DNA from: a virus
Lineage: Duplodnaviria > Caudoviricetes
Length of the DNA stretch: 64,000 bases
Direction: 5' to 3' (one strand)
Virus record (IMG/VR): IMGVR_UViG_3300023283_000076
Coordinates: 96,001 to 160,000 of that record
Position 1 is the stretch's first letter, and each line of letters opens with the position of its first letter. Below, in pieces: positions 27,368 to 53,020 of this stretch. The notes beneath the pieces were generated by a model. It ran no database searches. It was not told the DNA's origin and saw only the letters and a list, made by a program, of their open reading frames with translations. Made by a program: the position numbers and the translations under genes.

Positions 27368-28150
27368 TTAGTAATACTCAAGTTTTATATTTCCATGTTC
27401 ATCTTCATACAAATACGAGCAAAATTCCACCCAGCATCCACAATTTAAATATCTTATATCATCAATTATTTTGTCTTCCGCATAATGTATGTGCCCACAA
27501 ATAACGCCATCCGCATCATGTTCTGCAGCACAATTTACAACCAAATTTTCATAATTATTAATATATTGTACTGATCGTTTAACACTATTTTTCACCCATT
27601 GTGCCAAACTCCATTCCTTTAAATTAAACATTCGTCTAATTTTGTTTAGTAGTCTATTTAAGATTATAATAAGTTTATAGCTACAGTTTCCTAATGTATA
27701 TATAATAGGATACATTCTAACTAATCCATCGAACTCGTCCCCGTGAAGAATAAAAAATCTGTCACCGTTTTTTGTAGTATAAACGTCATTATATTTTATT
27801 GTTATTCCATTAAAAGTTACACCTGCGGGAGACTCTTTTAAAAATTCTTCTGATAAAAAGTAATCATGATTCCCTCTTATATACGTTATTTGCACTCCCT
27901 TGTCTGCCATACGAAAGAACTTTTTAATTATTTTTCTATGTTTAGACCAAAAAACCCTATGATTAAATCCTGTCATATCTATAATGTCACCAACAAGGAA
28001 AATTTTATTAATAATATAACCTCCCTCATTGTTTTCTAAAGATTTGAGAAATTCATATAATTTTTCATGTTGGCAATTAGGATTTCCAAGGTGAATATCA
28101 GATAACCATATAGACTCAATATGTGTATTTTTATTTTTTTCGTTTTTCAT
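27368..28150 (-). CDS. PlcP-like metallophosphoesterase (phospholipase C / UDP-diacylglucosamine hydrolase-like)
   Basis: WLSDIHLG..CQ, LVGDIID, GNHD, HGDEFD, WSLAQWVKNSVK.SV.YI..YE, DGVICGHIH. Confidence 0.85.
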   Translation of the reverse strand: MKNEKNKNTHIESIWLSDIHLGNPNCQHEKLYEFLKSLENNEGGYIINKIFLVGDIIDMTGFNHRVFWSKHRKIIKKFFRMADKGVQITYIRGNHDYFLSEEFLKESPAGVTFNGITIKYNDVYTTKNGDRFFILHGDEFDGLVRMYPIIYTLGNCSYKLIIILNRLLNKIRRMFNLKEWSLAQWVKNSVKRSVQYINNYENLVVNCAAEHDADGVICGHIHYAEDKIIDDIRYLNCGCWVEFCSYLYEDEHGNIKLEYY

Positions 28151-28232
28151 TCGTGGGCGGTCACTTGTCAACTGCTGATTTATTTATCTTCTTGTTATAG
28201 AAGTTACTATATTACAAAACAGTTACAACAAA

Positions 28233-28381: not shown

Positions 28382-28396
28382 ATAAATGGGAGGGGA

Positions 28397-28468
28397 TGCC
28401 GTTGAAAGGATTCGAGCCTTTAACTTTTTCCTATCAAGGAACTGCTCTGCCAATTGAGCTACAACGGC
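28397..28468 (-). pseudogene. Degenerate tRNA-Ile(GAT)
   Basis: 6-nt anticodon loop TTGATA, C54, no encoded CCA. Confidence 0.7.
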
Positions 28469-28483
28469 AATTTATATTATTTA

Positions 28484-31946: not shown

Positions 31947-34019
31947 TTATACAATATATTCACTACTAATTTCCGTTATATTCATCGGTGTAATATCACC
32001 TTCGAACAATCCAAATATAGTATCTGCCTTTTCTGGATGGACTAAAGTTCCATTACGAGCCTTAACATGCATCATGAAAAGATCATATAAGCTTACTTTA
32101 TTATTGATAGAAAGCATTGCTTCAACCACATCACGTATTGATGCTGCGTTGCTATTAACATTGTTAGGTAGCTCGCCAAATGCATCTGCATGTGACATGT
32201 CTGTCCATATAATTTCTCTTGTTTTAATATCAAAAATTACCGGCATGGCGCTTGTACTATCAAAATTTAAATCAAGCTTGCATTCGACAGTTTTAGGATC
32301 GTAAACTTCATTACTGTCAGGTTTTGATCTGCTCATCCAACCAATGAAGCAAGTATCGTGTTCTGCAAAAGTATACCCGGAGAATACCATCACATTCATT
32401 GCAACATATCTTATACCAGAGCTACGAGCATTTTCGATATCGATATCAACAAATTCACTAGCACCATGTGGCGCTCTGGTTATATCACCTGAATGATACA
32501 GTCCAGACCTCGGCGATCTAATATTACCATACCAAATCTTGTCAACAACTTTAAAGTTTTTATCAAACAATGTTGCGCTCAAGTCAATATCTAGCCCTAC
32601 CCAATACAAAAACAGGCGTATAGTGTTTGTTTCTTCATCCCCAAAAGGAAAACGAGTTCCTCTCGCTGCCGAATGTGTACCATCACTAGCGCTTCTTTGC
32701 TGAGAAGGGATGGGGCATCTTTCTAATGCTGGATCAACATATACATTACCCAAGTTTTCCAGACTAGAAAATCTGTTGATTAGTGTCTTGGATATTCCAG
32801 TTACAAGAGTATTAACTACTTTTTCGGGGAGAGCATCCTGTCCACTAATTAATTCAGCCCTTTGAATGTTCCCTTTAGGAAACACTACTCTCTTCGTGGT
32901 ACTTTTGCTTCTAGTTGCAAAATGACCTTTCAACTGTAGAAGAACTTTGGTTGAAACACTATCAGCCACAGATATAAATTTGTTTGCAACAATTATCTGA
33001 TTCCTTTCGGCACCAGCCATCCTCAATAGATGATCCAATCTACGCGCAAAGTCGCCGGGACGGGTTACTAATAGCTTAGTAGCCTTAACCGGATGACCAG
33101 ACGCCAATTGCCGCTCAACTTTAGTGCTAAAAGTTTCCACACTTTCGTTTTCACGTAATGGTTTGATGGCATCATATACTTTCTTGGAGTAGTCTCCAAC
33201 ATGCAAAGAGTGCGCCAACTTAATCCACTTTCCACTATGTCTTACAAGATCTTCTCTATTGATGACAGATTCTAATCCTTTAACAAGGATTCGCCTTTCT
33301 GGTCTTTTGAAATTCTTGAATTTAGTGTTGTCTGCTAATGAAACATCACCACCGGACATATGTGTGGCAATACGCAACACATCGTTGGGGTTCTTAACCA
33401 GTTCATTGATTGGAATTCCATTTTCTACCATGTATGCACCAATAATACACAGATTTTCCTTGAACGGAATTGTTTCCGGAAATACGAGATTTCCGTAATG
33501 TTGCAAGAACCATTCAATGATTTCCTTATCTGTACTAGATACAGAATCGTTTGATGCCAATATCTTTGTAAATATTGATGCAAACTCGTCTTCTGTCGCA
33601 AGTCCCAGAGTTCTAAACTTCACATTTTCAAATGCGAATTCTCTAGGAAGTTTTTCATAATCAGGCTTCCAGTAACCGTAACTCCAATAATGCATGATAG
33701 CGTTCAAAAACAATTCCAAATCACTGGCTTCGATAACCTGACGAGGGAAATTCGGATACATTGGTTTATGAACTACATTATCGCCTTTCAACTCTTTCAA
33801 TGTTTTAACTAATACTGCTGAAAGGTCTCCTAGCATATGATCTGGAAGCTCTGAGATCACTTTTAAGAGATCTTCATCCATCATATAACCTAGGCCCATG
33901 ATATTGGCTTGAAGGGTCATGGCCTTTGCTGTAATCTGTCCCGTTGGACTCTCACTGCGCAGGTGCGCAGGTATAACTACTTTTTCTAGCTTTTTGATAG
34001 CTATTTCTGTCTTATTCAT
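31947..34019 (-). CDS. ROT/TROVE-like helical-repeat protein with C-terminal TerD domain (690 aa)
   Basis: PMYPNFPRQV, RPGDFARRLDHLLR; TerD-like DIDLSA...HSGDIT.AP.GASEFVDID; start reassigned to MNKTE after an AGGAG RBS. Confidence 0.75.
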   Translation of the reverse strand: MNKTEIAIKKLEKVVIPAHLRSESPTGQITAKAMTLQANIMGLGYMMDEDLLKVISELPDHMLGDLSAVLVKTLKELKGDNVVHKPMYPNFPRQVIEASDLELFLNAIMHYWSYGYWKPDYEKLPREFAFENVKFRTLGLATEDEFASIFTKILASNDSVSSTDKEIIEWFLQHYGNLVFPETIPFKENLCIIGAYMVENGIPINELVKNPNDVLRIATHMSGGDVSLADNTKFKNFKRPERRILVKGLESVINREDLVRHSGKWIKLAHSLHVGDYSKKVYDAIKPLRENESVETFSTKVERQLASGHPVKATKLLVTRPGDFARRLDHLLRMAGAERNQIIVANKFISVADSVSTKVLLQLKGHFATRSKSTTKRVVFPKGNIQRAELISGQDALPEKVVNTLVTGISKTLINRFSSLENLGNVYVDPALERCPIPSQQRSASDGTHSAARGTRFPFGDEETNTIRLFLYWVGLDIDLSATLFDKNFKVVDKIWYGNIRSPRSGLYHSGDITRAPHGASEFVDIDIENARSSGIRYVAMNVMVFSGYTFAEHDTCFIGWMSRSKPDSNEVYDPKTVECKLDLNFDSTSAMPVIFDIKTREIIWTDMSHADAFGELPNNVNSNAASIRDVVEAMLSINNKVSLYDLFMMHVKARNGTLVHPEKADTIFGLFEGDITPMNITEISSEYIV

Positions 34020-34104
34020 CTTCGTTCTCCTGAAGTAAAGTGGAAGAACCATTTTCTTCCGTAGCCTCAAAGCACCGGCCCATCCGGTCTTTTAGAGTAA
34101 AATT

Positions 34105-34172
34105 GTCGGTAAGTTAAAGAGCTACGTTTTTTCCGAGAGTAAAAATTAGAAGGATGCTCTTTTATAGCCGAC
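34105..34172 (-). ncRNA. Conserved RNA stem element, copy A (leader of the TROVE/TerD gene)
   Basis: GTCGG-CTATA-AAAGAGC-ATCCTTCT...GCTCTTT-AACTTA-CCGAC; homologous to copies B and C. Confidence 0.7.
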
Positions 34173-44839: not shown

Positions 44840-45370
44840 ATGAAAAAATATATATTTACAATATTGGCTGGATTATTAATATCATCATCTGTCGTTTCTC
44901 AAGATGTCTCAGATGCGGGAATATGGAGTTCATCTGATGATAGTTTTCAAGGATTTAATTTTGTTCCTGTAGGTGAAACCGTTTTCGCAAATGAATCTCT
45001 TATTGTGTTTTGGTACACATATGATGAAAGCGGTAATCAGGTTTGGTTTATAAGTGATAATGTTGAAGCAAATCCCTCGGGCAACTATCAACGAGTCGAC
45101 ATATTCAACCCTATTTGTTCATTTAGAGTTCTTTCTGATGAATGTTCAGCAGGGGATCCTGTCGGGGTTATTGATATTTCTAAAGAATTAACTGGTACAT
45201 TTGATGTGCGTTTCGCAATAGATGAAAGCGTCGGTGATTTTAGTGCTGAATGTGACCCTAATGTCCTAGATCCTAGAGTAAGCCCAGCACCGCCTGAATT
45301 ACCCGAAGAGTTTGAATGTCAGGGAGAACTTACTTTAGAACGCATAACACCGAAAGCTGTTTTAGATTAA
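44840..45370 (+). CDS. Late secreted protein with signal peptide
   Basis: TATAAATA at 44802; Sec-type signal; G.W...QG...FWYTYD..GNQ.W beta-domain; CxC-type cysteine pairs. Confidence 0.8.
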   Translation: MKKYIFTILAGLLISSSVVSQDVSDAGIWSSSDDSFQGFNFVPVGETVFANESLIVFWYTYDESGNQVWFISDNVEANPSGNYQRVDIFNPICSFRVLSDECSAGDPVGVIDISKELTGTFDVRFAIDESVGDFSAECDPNVLDPRVSPAPPELPEEFECQGELTLERITPKAVLD

Positions 45371-45397
45371 TTAAATAATTCTGCGGTTCTGTGCCAC

Positions 45398-45480
45398 TGG
45401 GGTGCAGGACCGGAGTCGAAGCGGCATTTTCAGAGCCCGCAACCCCACGCTTTACCAATTAAGTTAAGTTAAGCTATCTA
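45398..45480 (-). pseudogene. Degenerate tRNA (GCG at the anticodon position)
   Basis: D-loop and T-loop recognisable, CCA present, 5' acceptor strand replaced by a TAACT duplication. Confidence 0.45.
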
Positions 45481-45543
45481 GACTATAGTTTATACGCCAT
45501 ACCGTATATTTTCATTTTATGCGCTATAACGTATATTTAAAAA

Positions 45544-45619
45544 TGGCAGGTGTGCAAGGATTTGAACCCTGACCAAGAAATTTGGAGTTTCCTATGCTAC
45601 CAGATTACACCACACACCT
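45544..45619 (-). tRNA. tRNA-Trp(CCA)
   Basis: Loop CT-CCA-AA; CCA. Confidence 0.93.
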
Positions 45620-45629
45620 ACAATTAATA

Positions 45630-45704
45630 TTCTTGGAAAGTTGAAAAGCTGTTTAGTTGAGTAAAAGTCAAATGTATAGAAGGATGCTTTTCTATGGCCA
45701 AGAA
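45630..45704 (-). ncRNA. Conserved RNA stem element, copy B
   Basis: TTCTTGG-CCATA-GAAAAGC-ATCCTTCT...TTTTACTC...GCTTTTC-AACTTT-CCAAGAA. Confidence 0.72.
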
Positions 45705-45713
45705 ATTTTAAAA

Positions 45714-45790
45714 TGGTTGCGAGGGTGGGACTTGAACCCACACATAGAAGGTTATGAGCCTTCCAATCTACCAATTGATGTTACCTCGCG
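45714..45790 (-). tRNA. tRNA-Met(CAT), initiator-like
   Basis: C1:A72 mismatch; loop CT-CAT-AA; lacks the three consecutive G:C anticodon-stem pairs. Confidence 0.85.
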
Positions 45791-45821
45791 TCCGTATAAC
45801 TATTTATCATTAAATTAAAAA

Positions 45822-45983
45822 ACAGGTAATTTAAAAAGCTTTTTAAATACCGCTGCTCTACCAATTGAGCTACCAGCGAACCAAAAAATTCATTATACAT
45901 AAACTCTTTGGTTCGCTGGGCAGGACTCGAACCTGCAACCCACGGTTCCCATATTATTAGAAGGATGCCTTTTTATGGCCTGT
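45822..45983 (-). ncRNA. Conserved RNA stem element, copy C, enclosing a circularly permuted tRNA module (YrlA-like)
   Basis: T-arm half precedes D-arm half; acceptor TCGCTGG/CCAGCGA closed by an extended hairpin; anticodon stem continues into the A/B/C stem. Confidence 0.8.
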
Positions 45984-45995
45984 AATTTTTATTTA

Positions 45996-46217
45996 TCATA
46001 TCTTACTATGTTTCTTCCATGTTGTCAAATGACTTTTCGCTGAGAATAATCTGTTATTATATCTTGGTGCCATTATATTAATATGGTGCAATGAATCCCT
46101 AATGTATTTTGTCATAACTTCTGGGGCCTCACATGCACAAAACTCTAAAATCTCACATTGGATTTCATCGATGGCTTCATCGAAATTAAGCGGATTATCT
46201 TCTCCTCTGCTATCCAA
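45996..46217 (-). CDS. Hypothetical protein or fragment
   Basis: ORF; EILEFCACEAPE. Confidence 0.45.
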   Translation of the reverse strand: MDSRGEDNPLNFDEAIDEIQCEILEFCACEAPEVMTKYIRDSLHHINIMAPRYNNRLFSAKSHLTTWKKHSKI

Positions 46218-46288
46218 ATTTTCTACCTGATGATTATATTTTTTAACTTTCCGTAAATTCTTTGGCGGTTTTCATTTTATTAATCTTC

Positions 46289-46528
46289 TTATTTTGTGAT
46301 ATGTTTTACTGCCCACATGACTGCTTCTTCAATTTTGGTTTTAGCTAGTGACAATTCTCTAGAGTCGCCAACGGTATCAATAAGATTATGGAACTCTAAA
46401 CCAGCATCTTTGATACCCTTCATGAGTTGTTTTTCTTTATCAGAAAGAACTCTATATTCATGGCGCATAACGTTATTGGTAGTCCATTCGTCTCGTGTAT
46501 AATCAATTATTTCGTCATCTTTAAACAT
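46289..46528 (-). CDS. Acb2/Tad1-like cyclic-nucleotide sponge candidate (79 aa)
   Basis: YRVLSDKEKQLM..IK...SRELSLAKTKIEEAVMWAVK; start reassigned to MFKDD after a GAGGA RBS. Confidence 0.7.
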   Translation of the reverse strand: MFKDDEIIDYTRDEWTTNNVMRHEYRVLSDKEKQLMKGIKDAGLEFHNLIDTVGDSRELSLAKTKIEEAVMWAVKHITK

Positions 46529-46554
46529 TATCTTATCCTCTTGGTTGTAAAAGT

Positions 46555-46642
46555 TGGCGGAAGGGGAGGGGGTCGAACCCACACCGCTATTTCTAACGGG
46601 ACACCTTTCCAAGGTGCTTGATACACCAGTTTCCGCCCTTCC
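46555..46642 (-). tRNA. tRNA-Ser(GGA)
   Basis: Long variable arm; loop TT-GGA-AA; short D region; CCA. Confidence 0.8.
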
Positions 46643-52517: not shown

Positions 52518-52793
52518 TTAACCAACATAGTCAGCGAATCTTTCGGCAGACAATTTCGCATCATCTAAATTTTTAATGGTTTTGGTGCCATGTTTATTAT
52601 ATGGCGTGCTATCATCTCCATATTTAGGATCAAATATTTTATCACCTACTTTAAAACCCGCGACTGCACGATGGGACCAACCATACCATATTCCCTTATC
52701 TTCGTCAAGGCCAGTAGGCCCTTTTCCTCTTTTAGTAATATTATATTTTTTTAAAATGTCTTTAGTAGATTCAGATAGCTGTCGTAATTTCAT
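52518..52793 (-). CDS. Probable late protein
   Basis: Start reassigned to MKLRQLSE; TATAAATA upstream on the minus strand; WYGWSHRA motif. Confidence 0.7.
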   Translation of the reverse strand: MKLRQLSESTKDILKKYNITKRGKGPTGLDEDKGIWYGWSHRAVAGFKVGDKIFDPKYGDDSTPYNKHGTKTIKNLDDAKLSAERFADYVG

Positions 52794-53020
52794 TAAAATC
52801 AAGTTTTTATTTTTTTTTTTATTTAAGTATTTATAATTTGACATTATCCATTTAACACCAATAAAATTACTAAGCCTTAGATAATCATATATTGAAAATA
52901 TTAATATAATTTCTTGGGGACAAATATGTATCATTATTTAACTTCTTCTTAAAGTGTATACTGCTTCGGGTTTATCTTCAGACAACTTTAATATAGCAGA
53001 TGTTTCCGTATCGTTTACTG

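Follow-up and report, generated by a model that had tools for sequence, protein, structure and literature searches.

The DNA analysed here is a window of 64,000 nucleotides, bases 96001 to 160000 of the 270,653-bp IMG/VR record IMGVR_UViG_3300023283_000076, which belongs to an uncultured jumbo phage. All 17 tRNAs detected in the window by ARAGORN lie on the minus strand, and between two of them, tRNA-Met and tRNA-Trp, sits an element of 75 nt running from 45704 to 45630 on the same strand. This element, copy B, is one of three copies (A, B and C) of a structured RNA in the window, here called the handle RNA. An earlier note on this DNA had described it as 75 nt long, closed by a perfect 7-bp helix and without a downstream open reading frame (ORF), and both the sequence and the ORF map agree. 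Its position between the two tRNAs was likewise borne out by ARAGORN; the true spacers are 9 nt on the side of tRNA-Met (45705-45713) and 10 nt on the side of tRNA-Trp (45620-45629), the values of 10 and 11 nt given earlier being coordinate differences. The parts of copy B and its two neighbours are listed below, from upstream to downstream, with scores from a covariance model, R2, that is described further on.

45714-45790, minus strand: tRNA-Met(CAU), CCA encoded, directly upstream of B (ARAGORN; Rfam tRNA 50.4 bits)
45630-45704, minus strand: copy B, handle-type small RNA (R2 60.4 bits, E 1.7e-13, full model)
45698-45704, minus strand: B outer (closing) helix, 5' strand UUCUUGG, perfectly paired with 45630-45636
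45693-45697, minus strand: B 5' internal loop CCAUA, family consensus C-Y-A-U-R
45686-45692, minus strand: B inner helix, 5' strand GAAAAGC, paired with 45643-45649
45677-45685, minus strand: B conserved single-stranded AUCCUUCUA, family consensus UUCCUUCUA
45657-45671, minus strand: candidate cargo hairpin UUGA-CUUUUAC-UCAA, tRNA-Lys(UUU)-like, with a Y-U-NNN-R-N signature and a 4-bp stem
45643-45649, minus strand: B inner helix, 3' strand GCUUUUC, closing a second perfect 7-bp helix
45637-45642, minus strand: B 3' internal loop AACUUU, family consensus N-R-M-U-Y-U
45630-45636, minus strand: B outer helix, 3' strand CCAAGAA, seven Watson-Crick pairs, covarying family-wide
45544-45619, minus strand: tRNA-Trp(CCA), CCA encoded, directly downstream of B (ARAGORN; Rfam tRNA 57.9 bits)

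Copy B is itself no tRNA, as 45630-45704 yielded neither an ARAGORN call nor an Rfam tRNA match at E ≤ 10. Past B, the minus strand carries tRNA-Trp, about 170 nt of non-coding DNA and the end of a convergent plus-strand ORF (44840-45370), and the ORF map contains no minus-strand ORF downstream of B before this convergent gene. The sole ORF overlapping B is a 60-aa frame with a TTG start that runs across the tRNAs. The variable loop of B, 36 nt in length, is A/U-rich and predicted to be unstructured.

The family to which B belongs was defined from 65 viral loci, each encoding a homologue of a 690-aa protein whose gene also lies in the window and which we call the partner protein. A first model, R1, gave 132 matches in these loci, nearly all of them on the strand of the partner gene and directly up- or downstream of it, while R2 was built exclusively from 65 copies outside the window. 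In the alignments of these 65 copies, which were fitted to the covariance model and favour its structure, 96.3% of cells are paired, compared with 40-51% in slid-register controls, and 317 cells carry double-sided changes, compared with 89.5 in shuffles, none of 500 shuffles reaching as high a count. Such changes occur at 11 of 12 pairs, with a covariation score of 0.994 as against 0.185 in shuffles; all seven pairs of the inner helix show double-sided changes across the family, and the outer helix covaries as well. The 5' half of the family consensus reads NNNGG, C-Y-A-U-R, a 7-bp helix, UUCCUUCUA and a variable loop ending in UA; the 3' half consists of the return strand of the 7-bp helix, N-R-M-U-Y-U and CCNNN. 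Because the window-free R2 gives B the score listed above, B is not a chance hairpin, and by structure, conserved loops and R2 score it is a full member of the family.

Within the window, the 23-nt core of the RNA (GGCYAUA, six helix bases and CAUCCUUCUA) occurs three times, always on the minus strand, where 0.00 occurrences are expected. After C, B and A, the next-best R2 match in the window reaches 14 bits with filters off, and an R2 search of the remaining genome revealed no fourth copy. The other two copies, the partner gene and a predicted promoter are located as follows.

46000-46028, minus strand: sigma-70-like promoter TTGACA-17-TAAGAT, 10 of 12 matches, just upstream of A
45822-45983, minus strand: copy A, handle plus permuted anticodon-less tRNA module, YrlA-like (Rfam YrlA 43.6 bits, E 3.5e-8)
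34105-34172, minus strand: copy C, handle RNA in the leader of the gene for the 690-aa protein (R2 72.3 bits)
31947-34019, minus strand: partner gene, 690-aa protein with a helical N-terminal domain that is Ro60-like by predicted structure and a TerD C-terminal domain

Copy A, to which R2 gives 42.0 bits with 112 nt inserted relative to the model, contains an insert of 127 nt in which Rfam sees the tRNA-like part of YrlA, with a YrlA score under the gathering score of 69. The helix sequences of A, B and C are wholly different and yet free of mismatches, that is, they differ by compensatory changes. Copy C has its own promoter, TTGACA-17-TAGTAT. A short hairpin that resembles a loop-less miniature handle (34031-34069, minus strand; R2 14.2 bits, E 0.43) separates copy C from the start codon of the partner gene; it ends just upstream of a GGAG ribosome-binding site and may be an autoregulatory operator for the 690-aa protein.

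A structural scan, which fixes part of the UUCCUUC motif by construction, brought the family to 184 unique copies, 132 from viral and 52 from metagenome loci, the latter out of a metagenome pattern scan that gave 107 loci. The copies fall into a short-loop or plain class (78 viral, 28 metagenome), an extended class (29 and 11), a tRNA-module class (16 and 5) and a class with a T arm only (9 and 8). Arrays that mix module-bearing and module-less copies are the rule: one locus (L016) has the order module copy, plain copy, leader copy, gene, and another (L189) has four tandem copies, including a module copy followed by a plain one, the last of which ends 5 nt before a tRNA-Leu. Pattern matches at L067, L069, L078, L080, L084 and L087 were rejected; they lack a 3' partner and appear to be fortuitous occurrences within coding sequence. 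The system is also found in bacteria, among them Planctomycetota, Lentisphaerales, several Gammaproteobacteria and Verrucomicrobia, and in each of the 22 bacterial loci for which upstream DNA was available, the gene is preceded by 2-5 copies in tandem, with no intervening tRNAs. We conclude that the handle RNAs form a large and apparently uncatalogued family.

The position of the copies relative to the partner gene bears on whether the RNA is simply a leader. Among 65 short copies that could be placed, 23 lie at most 120 nt upstream of the gene, in leader position, 16 lie 121-1000 nt upstream, 18 are found downstream of it and 8 at distances above 1 kb. The loci carried flanks of 10 kb only, so that remote copies such as A and B are under-counted. 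Since the RNA comes in tandem sets of mixed classes and also occurs behind the gene or at a distance, it is not simply a leader; the earlier suggestion that the motif is not only a leader element is thus upheld by the 18 downstream and 8 distant copies of the 65 and by the bacterial tandems of 2-5.

Copies of the family adjoin tRNAs beyond chance. Seventeen of the 184 lie within 30 nt of a tRNA on the same strand, where 2.7 are expected from random intervals in the same loci (about 6-fold), and six are sandwiched between two tRNAs, where 0.05 are expected; B is the only short-loop copy in the set that is so sandwiched. The arrangements include tRNA-Lys, module copy and tRNA-Pro (L066); tRNA-Ile, T-arm copy and tRNA-Val (L051, L052 and L054); tRNA-Met followed after 1 nt by a plain copy (L004); tRNA-Lys followed after 4-5 nt by a plain copy (L079 and L068); and a promoter, a plain copy and, 15 nt further on, tRNA-Trp (L108). 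The partner gene, too, usually lies inside tRNA arrays. That B is a copy of the motif in a tRNA slot, as had been proposed, is borne out by its R2 match, its tRNA-like spacing and this enrichment of the family at tRNAs. In the phage, the promoter at 46028-46000 probably drives A, tRNA-Met, B and tRNA-Trp as one predicted unit of about 500 nt; a scan of 45200-46300 was negative for terminator-like sites, and between A and B it revealed no further minus-strand site resembling a promoter. Across the family, strict promoters lie at most 70 nt upstream of 15 of 182 copies, compared with 0.7% of random positions (about 12-fold), and mostly end 4-10 nt before the handle. After tRNA-Trp, the unit closes with a G+C-rich structured stretch (45385-45470, minus strand) that gives a weak, partial Rfam tRNA match of 18.6 bits. 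It was considered as a hidden or intron-bearing tRNA and rejected, ARAGORN finding none there with introns or at lowered thresholds.

The partner protein has at least 1,612 homologues, a few of which are named 'TerD family protein'; proteins P0002 and P0003 are 90% and 86% identical. In PHROGs it belongs to an unannotated family, and Pfam detects TerD only, weakly (E 0.012). An AlphaFold model of the whole protein has a mean predicted local distance difference test (pLDDT) score of 84, and its C-terminal domain was identified as TerD by Foldseek and by VIA (Z 12.4); with the full 690-aa model as query, Foldseek found TerD only. The N-terminal 430 residues were folded alone (pLDDT 82.5) and compared with 48,161 PDB representatives. 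The best match was Rsr of D. radiodurans (2nvo; Z 9.2, root-mean-square deviation 4.7 Å over 250 residues) and the second the Ro60 of Thermus phage phiLo (9l5y; Z 9.0, 4.3 Å over 230 residues), whereas all other structural matches of this domain align only about 100 residues. It is reasonable to call the partner 'TROVE-like' in the sense of a moderate resemblance between predicted and known structures rather than of TROVE membership. Of the earlier identification as a TROVE/TerD protein, the TerD half therefore stands by its fold, while the TROVE half is reduced to a Ro60-like structure that the Pfam TROVE model does not recognise. In bacteria, the neighbours of the partner gene are two RNA ligases, an HD+AAA_33 kinase-like protein, an RNase T-type exonuclease and a nucleotidyltransferase, a repair-gene neighbourhood that echoes the rsr-yrlBA-rtcBA operon. 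The culturable bacterium Aliikangiella coralliicola has a complete repair-like operon around its handle RNAs and partner gene (L203, 3992-11600), in the order HD protein, nucleotidyltransferase, RNA array, partner gene, RNase T, RNA ligase, HD+AAA_33 kinase-like protein and second RNA ligase. Genes of HNH type were seen at two other loci, one just upstream of the RNA ligase (L218) and one, an HNH endonuclease-like ORF, between a handle copy and the partner gene (L065, 9330-9820, plus strand).

The combination of a small structured RNA, a tRNA-mimicking sister and a Ro60-like partner invites comparison with bacterial Y RNAs. A common precursor gives rise to YrlA and YrlB in M. smegmatis; every species studied combines a Y RNA that bears a tRNA module with a second, module-less one; and a Ro60-binding motif lies near the 5' end, GNCGAAN0-1G in bacteria and GGUCCGA in animals (PMC4201824). 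Copy B shares several features with YrlB/Yrn2 as described there by Chen et al. (2014): its 5' and 3' ends pair in a stem with an internal loop; it lies on the same strand as a tRNA-mimicking sister, the YrlA-like copy A, with which it is predicted here to be co-transcribed; it has a pyrimidine-rich single-stranded stretch; its partner is ring-shaped and Ro60-like by predicted structure; and its locus is tied to RNA-repair genes. The architecture is that of a Y RNA, with a 7-bp outer helix, an internal loop of 5 and 6 nt and a 7-bp inner helix, while the length of 75 nt is slightly short for Y RNAs of about 80-130 nt. With YrlA (RF02553), which copy A matches, B shares the same plan of outer helix, internal loop and 7-bp inner helix, and the AACUU in its 3' internal loop resembles the AaAcUuG of the model. 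The differences are equally clear. The handle motif is GGCYAUR...UUCCUUCUA rather than GNCGAAN0-1G, the partner carries TerD where Ro60 has its vWA domain, and B, in its tRNA slot, is separated from the protein gene by 11.6 kb. Unlike YrlA, moreover, B is without the entire tRNA-like module, and even A falls below the gathering score of that family. B has no match in Rfam, and no Y-RNA family (RF02553 YrlA or RF00019 Y_RNA) was found over 45630-45704 when 45200-46200 was searched with cmscan at E ≤ 10. Since B has neither the Rfam match nor the GNCGAA motif, it is best regarded as belonging to a sister system rather than to the Y RNAs proper. The YrlA/YrlB pair, which had been offered as a precedent, fits as an analogy: A matches YrlA, B is module-less and mixed arrays are the rule.

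A second comparison is with the 'species 1 and 2' RNAs (rnaC and rnaD) of the T4 tRNA cluster and the 3'ETS-leuZ of E. coli, stable small RNAs that come out of tRNA operons. B resembles these RNAs in being a non-tRNA RNA within a tRNA unit and in its putative release by processing nucleases. They are not known to have a dedicated protein partner or a conserved handle.

The variable loop of B may be more than a spacer. The candidate hairpin at 45657-45671 has four Watson-Crick pairs and a 7-nt loop with U33, the anticodon UUU and A37. It is a weak example: its stem is 4 bp where that of the subclass is 5 bp, position 38 is C and not A, and its formation costs +1.0 kcal/mol, at which value unaided formation is not predicted. 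Genuine tRNA-Lys(UUU) loops in the fetched loci read CUUUUAA in 18 of 18 cases, and one of these tRNAs has the same UUGA/UCAA stem. In the family as a whole, hairpins with the anticodon-loop signature occur in 25 of 122 short copies, compared with 1.9 ± 1.4 in shuffles (about 13-fold). Those with a stem of at least 5 bp number 12 where 0.7 are expected, the signature accounts for 36% of all hairpins with a 7-nt loop where 7.7% is expected, and the anticodons GUU, UGG, UUU and UGA recur. An anticodon-arm subclass of handle RNAs is real; for B itself, the presence of such an arm is about evenly balanced between yes and no. Because its loop may hold this Lys-like hairpin, B is not strictly a bare stem. 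An analysis of A (tRNA body) and B (Lys arm) as halves of a phage tRNA-Lys led to rejection of that idea, the D and T arms of A being unlike those of the phage tRNA-Lys(UUU).

These data suggest a model in which B is functional, excised and trans-acting: it would be the YrlB-like partner of A and would serve the Ro60-like/TerD protein as a ligand, in a tRNA- and RNA-repair setting. We regard this reading as probable. Action in trans is supported by the genomic arrangements, because copies abut tRNAs beyond chance and many are placed behind the gene or at a distance. According to this model, a single precursor starting at the promoter 46028-46000 would contain copy A, tRNA-Met, B and tRNA-Trp. 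Cleavage by RNase P at the 5' end of tRNA-Trp would set the 3' boundary of B. With tRNA-Met matured at its 3' end as well, the product would be a free RNA of about 75-95 nt, protected at its ends by the 7-bp closing helix; release by tRNA 5' and 3' processing is the simplest fate that the sequence predicts. Protein binding would be the task of the two-helix handle, including the conserved internal loops and UCCUUCUA, while the 36-nt loop would be the variable part, and the free RNA would act as a ligand, regulator or adaptor of the 690-aa protein in a system tied to tRNA and RNA repair. The data show the structure, the covariation, the membership of B in the family, the genomic linkage to the protein, the tRNA-array setting and the repair-gene neighbourhood; the transcription, excision, protein binding and function of B are what we infer.

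Several results weigh against this model. B lies upstream of the partner gene on the same strand, and most copies of the family lie within 1 kb of that gene, not at the 11.6 kb seen here. The Ro60-binding motif is absent from B, which reads GGCCAUAG at that place, the family consensus being GGCYAUR. On the protein side, the structural match (Z about 9) is middling by the standards of helical repeats, only noise and no Ro60 came up when the N-terminal domain was searched as a sequence profile against the PDB, and neither the phage nor any of five bacterial genomes that have the system gave a match to Pfam TROVE (PF05731); because that model finds nothing, 'TROVE' denotes structural resemblance only. 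Folded by itself, B is no more than moderately unusual, with a minimum free energy of -12.3 kcal/mol and a z-score of only -2.7. Among the 107 metagenome loci none is syntenic for B, the best DNA match (73%) covering copy A only, and searches for relatives of the A-B region came back empty both with blastn against GenBank phages and in a single-protein scan of viral contigs.

Other explanations of B can be measured against the same evidence. If B were a riboswitch-like or attenuator leader controlling a downstream gene, it would share the position of copy C and of the 23 other short copies at most 120 nt upstream of the partner gene, where the mini-handle-like hairpin also overlaps the ribosome-binding region; its own strand, however, has no downstream ORF, just tRNA-Trp and then the convergent gene, so that B does not lie in the 5' untranslated region of a gene under its control but 10 nt from a tRNA. 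The scan of 45200-46300 for terminator-like sites was empty as well, and we consider this explanation extremely improbable. B might also be a neutral relic of A or C that landed between tRNAs and is degraded after processing without any role, as its A/U-rich loop, predicted to be unstructured, and its distance from the partner gene would allow. A decaying copy should show mismatches, and neutrality is disfavoured because both helices of B (7 + 7 bp) are perfect; no conserved single-stranded position has been lost, although loop and helices differ throughout from those of A and C by compensatory changes, and the sandwiched arrangement recurs in unrelated phages. A neutral origin is thus very unlikely.

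Somewhat less remote, though still unlikely, is the view that B remains unreleased and acts in cis as a tag that recruits the Ro60-like/TerD protein to the neighbouring pre-tRNAs, where it would chaperone or protect them, control their quality or time their processing. The tight spacing of 9-10 nt to both tRNAs, the strong enrichment of the family beside tRNAs, the usual location of the partner gene in tRNA arrays and the binding of misfolded non-coding RNA precursors by Ro60 (PMC4201824) are all in keeping with such a role, but 167 of the 184 copies do not adjoin a tRNA, the bacterial tandem copies have no tRNAs between them, and tRNA processing would in any case part B from its neighbours. 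The possible anticodon arm gives rise to a further proposal, a tentative one which we judge rather doubtful: that B is a decoy or sensor whose handle docks on the Ro60-like/TerD protein while its loop displays a tRNA-Lys(UUU)-like arm, forming a particle that baits, senses or helps to repair tRNA damage. Sister copy A would then display the rest of the tRNA body, and the particle would act against damage inflicted by tRNA-cleaving defences of the host. Anticodon nucleases of the PrrC type have tRNA-Lys(UUU) as their classic target. If this proposal holds, the family would constitute a programmable 'tRNA-part display' system in the fight between phage and host over tRNAs, a new mechanism in that conflict, and it would fit the presence in the same tRNA region of two anti-defence genes: an Acb2/Tad1 hairpin-domain protein (46289-46612, minus strand; E 1e-20), whose gene immediately precedes the A-B unit, and a Tad6 Thoeris inhibitor (52518-52934, minus strand; E 4.5e-15).

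Ro60/Y-RNA particles are among the few conserved non-coding ribonucleoproteins common to animals and bacteria, and their bacterial roles are poorly understood. The present data suggest a parallel, widespread ribonucleoprotein that has no Rfam or Pfam model, a different handle and TerD in place of vWA. B offers the cleanest argument for action in trans, having no gene to regulate and a tRNA slot while keeping all the features of the family. New in this analysis are the independent test of the membership of B, the statistics of tRNA abutment, the census of positions that speaks against a leader-only role and the test for anticodon arms. The literature searched describes neither a TerD-linked RNA nor a TROVE-TerD protein, and a survey of jumbo phages mentions TROVE proteins and TerD proteins only separately (PMC7824862).

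Several minor observations concern the tRNAs. The tRNA-Met beside B has, in its Rfam alignment, a C1-A72 mismatch atop the acceptor stem, a hallmark of bacterial initiator tRNA. An 8-mer, CCUUCUAU, is common to the conserved loop of B and the 3' strand of the anticodon stem of this tRNA-Met; pairing of the conserved UCCUUCU with Shine-Dalgarno-like sequences or with the tRNA-Met anticodon stem is a matter of speculation. Elsewhere in the window, ARAGORN reports a tRNA with a two-base anticodon ('ga') at 28394-28469 on the minus strand, to which Rfam tRNA gives 58 bits; it may have a 6-nt anticodon loop or be a mis-call. Beside the pair formed by this odd tRNA and a tRNA-Leu, a gene at 27368-28171 (minus strand) encodes a calcineurin-like phosphoesterase (Metallophos, E 1e-10), possibly an RNA end-healing enzyme. 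Outside the window, the phage genome (G000) carries mirror-image tRNA sets with identical anticodon arms at about 16-38 kb on the minus strand and about 64-82 kb on the plus strand, comprising Lys-UUU, Leu-UAA/CAA/UAG, Tyr, Pro, Arg-UCU, Cys, Val and Thr, which points to a large inverted duplication or else to an artefact of assembly.
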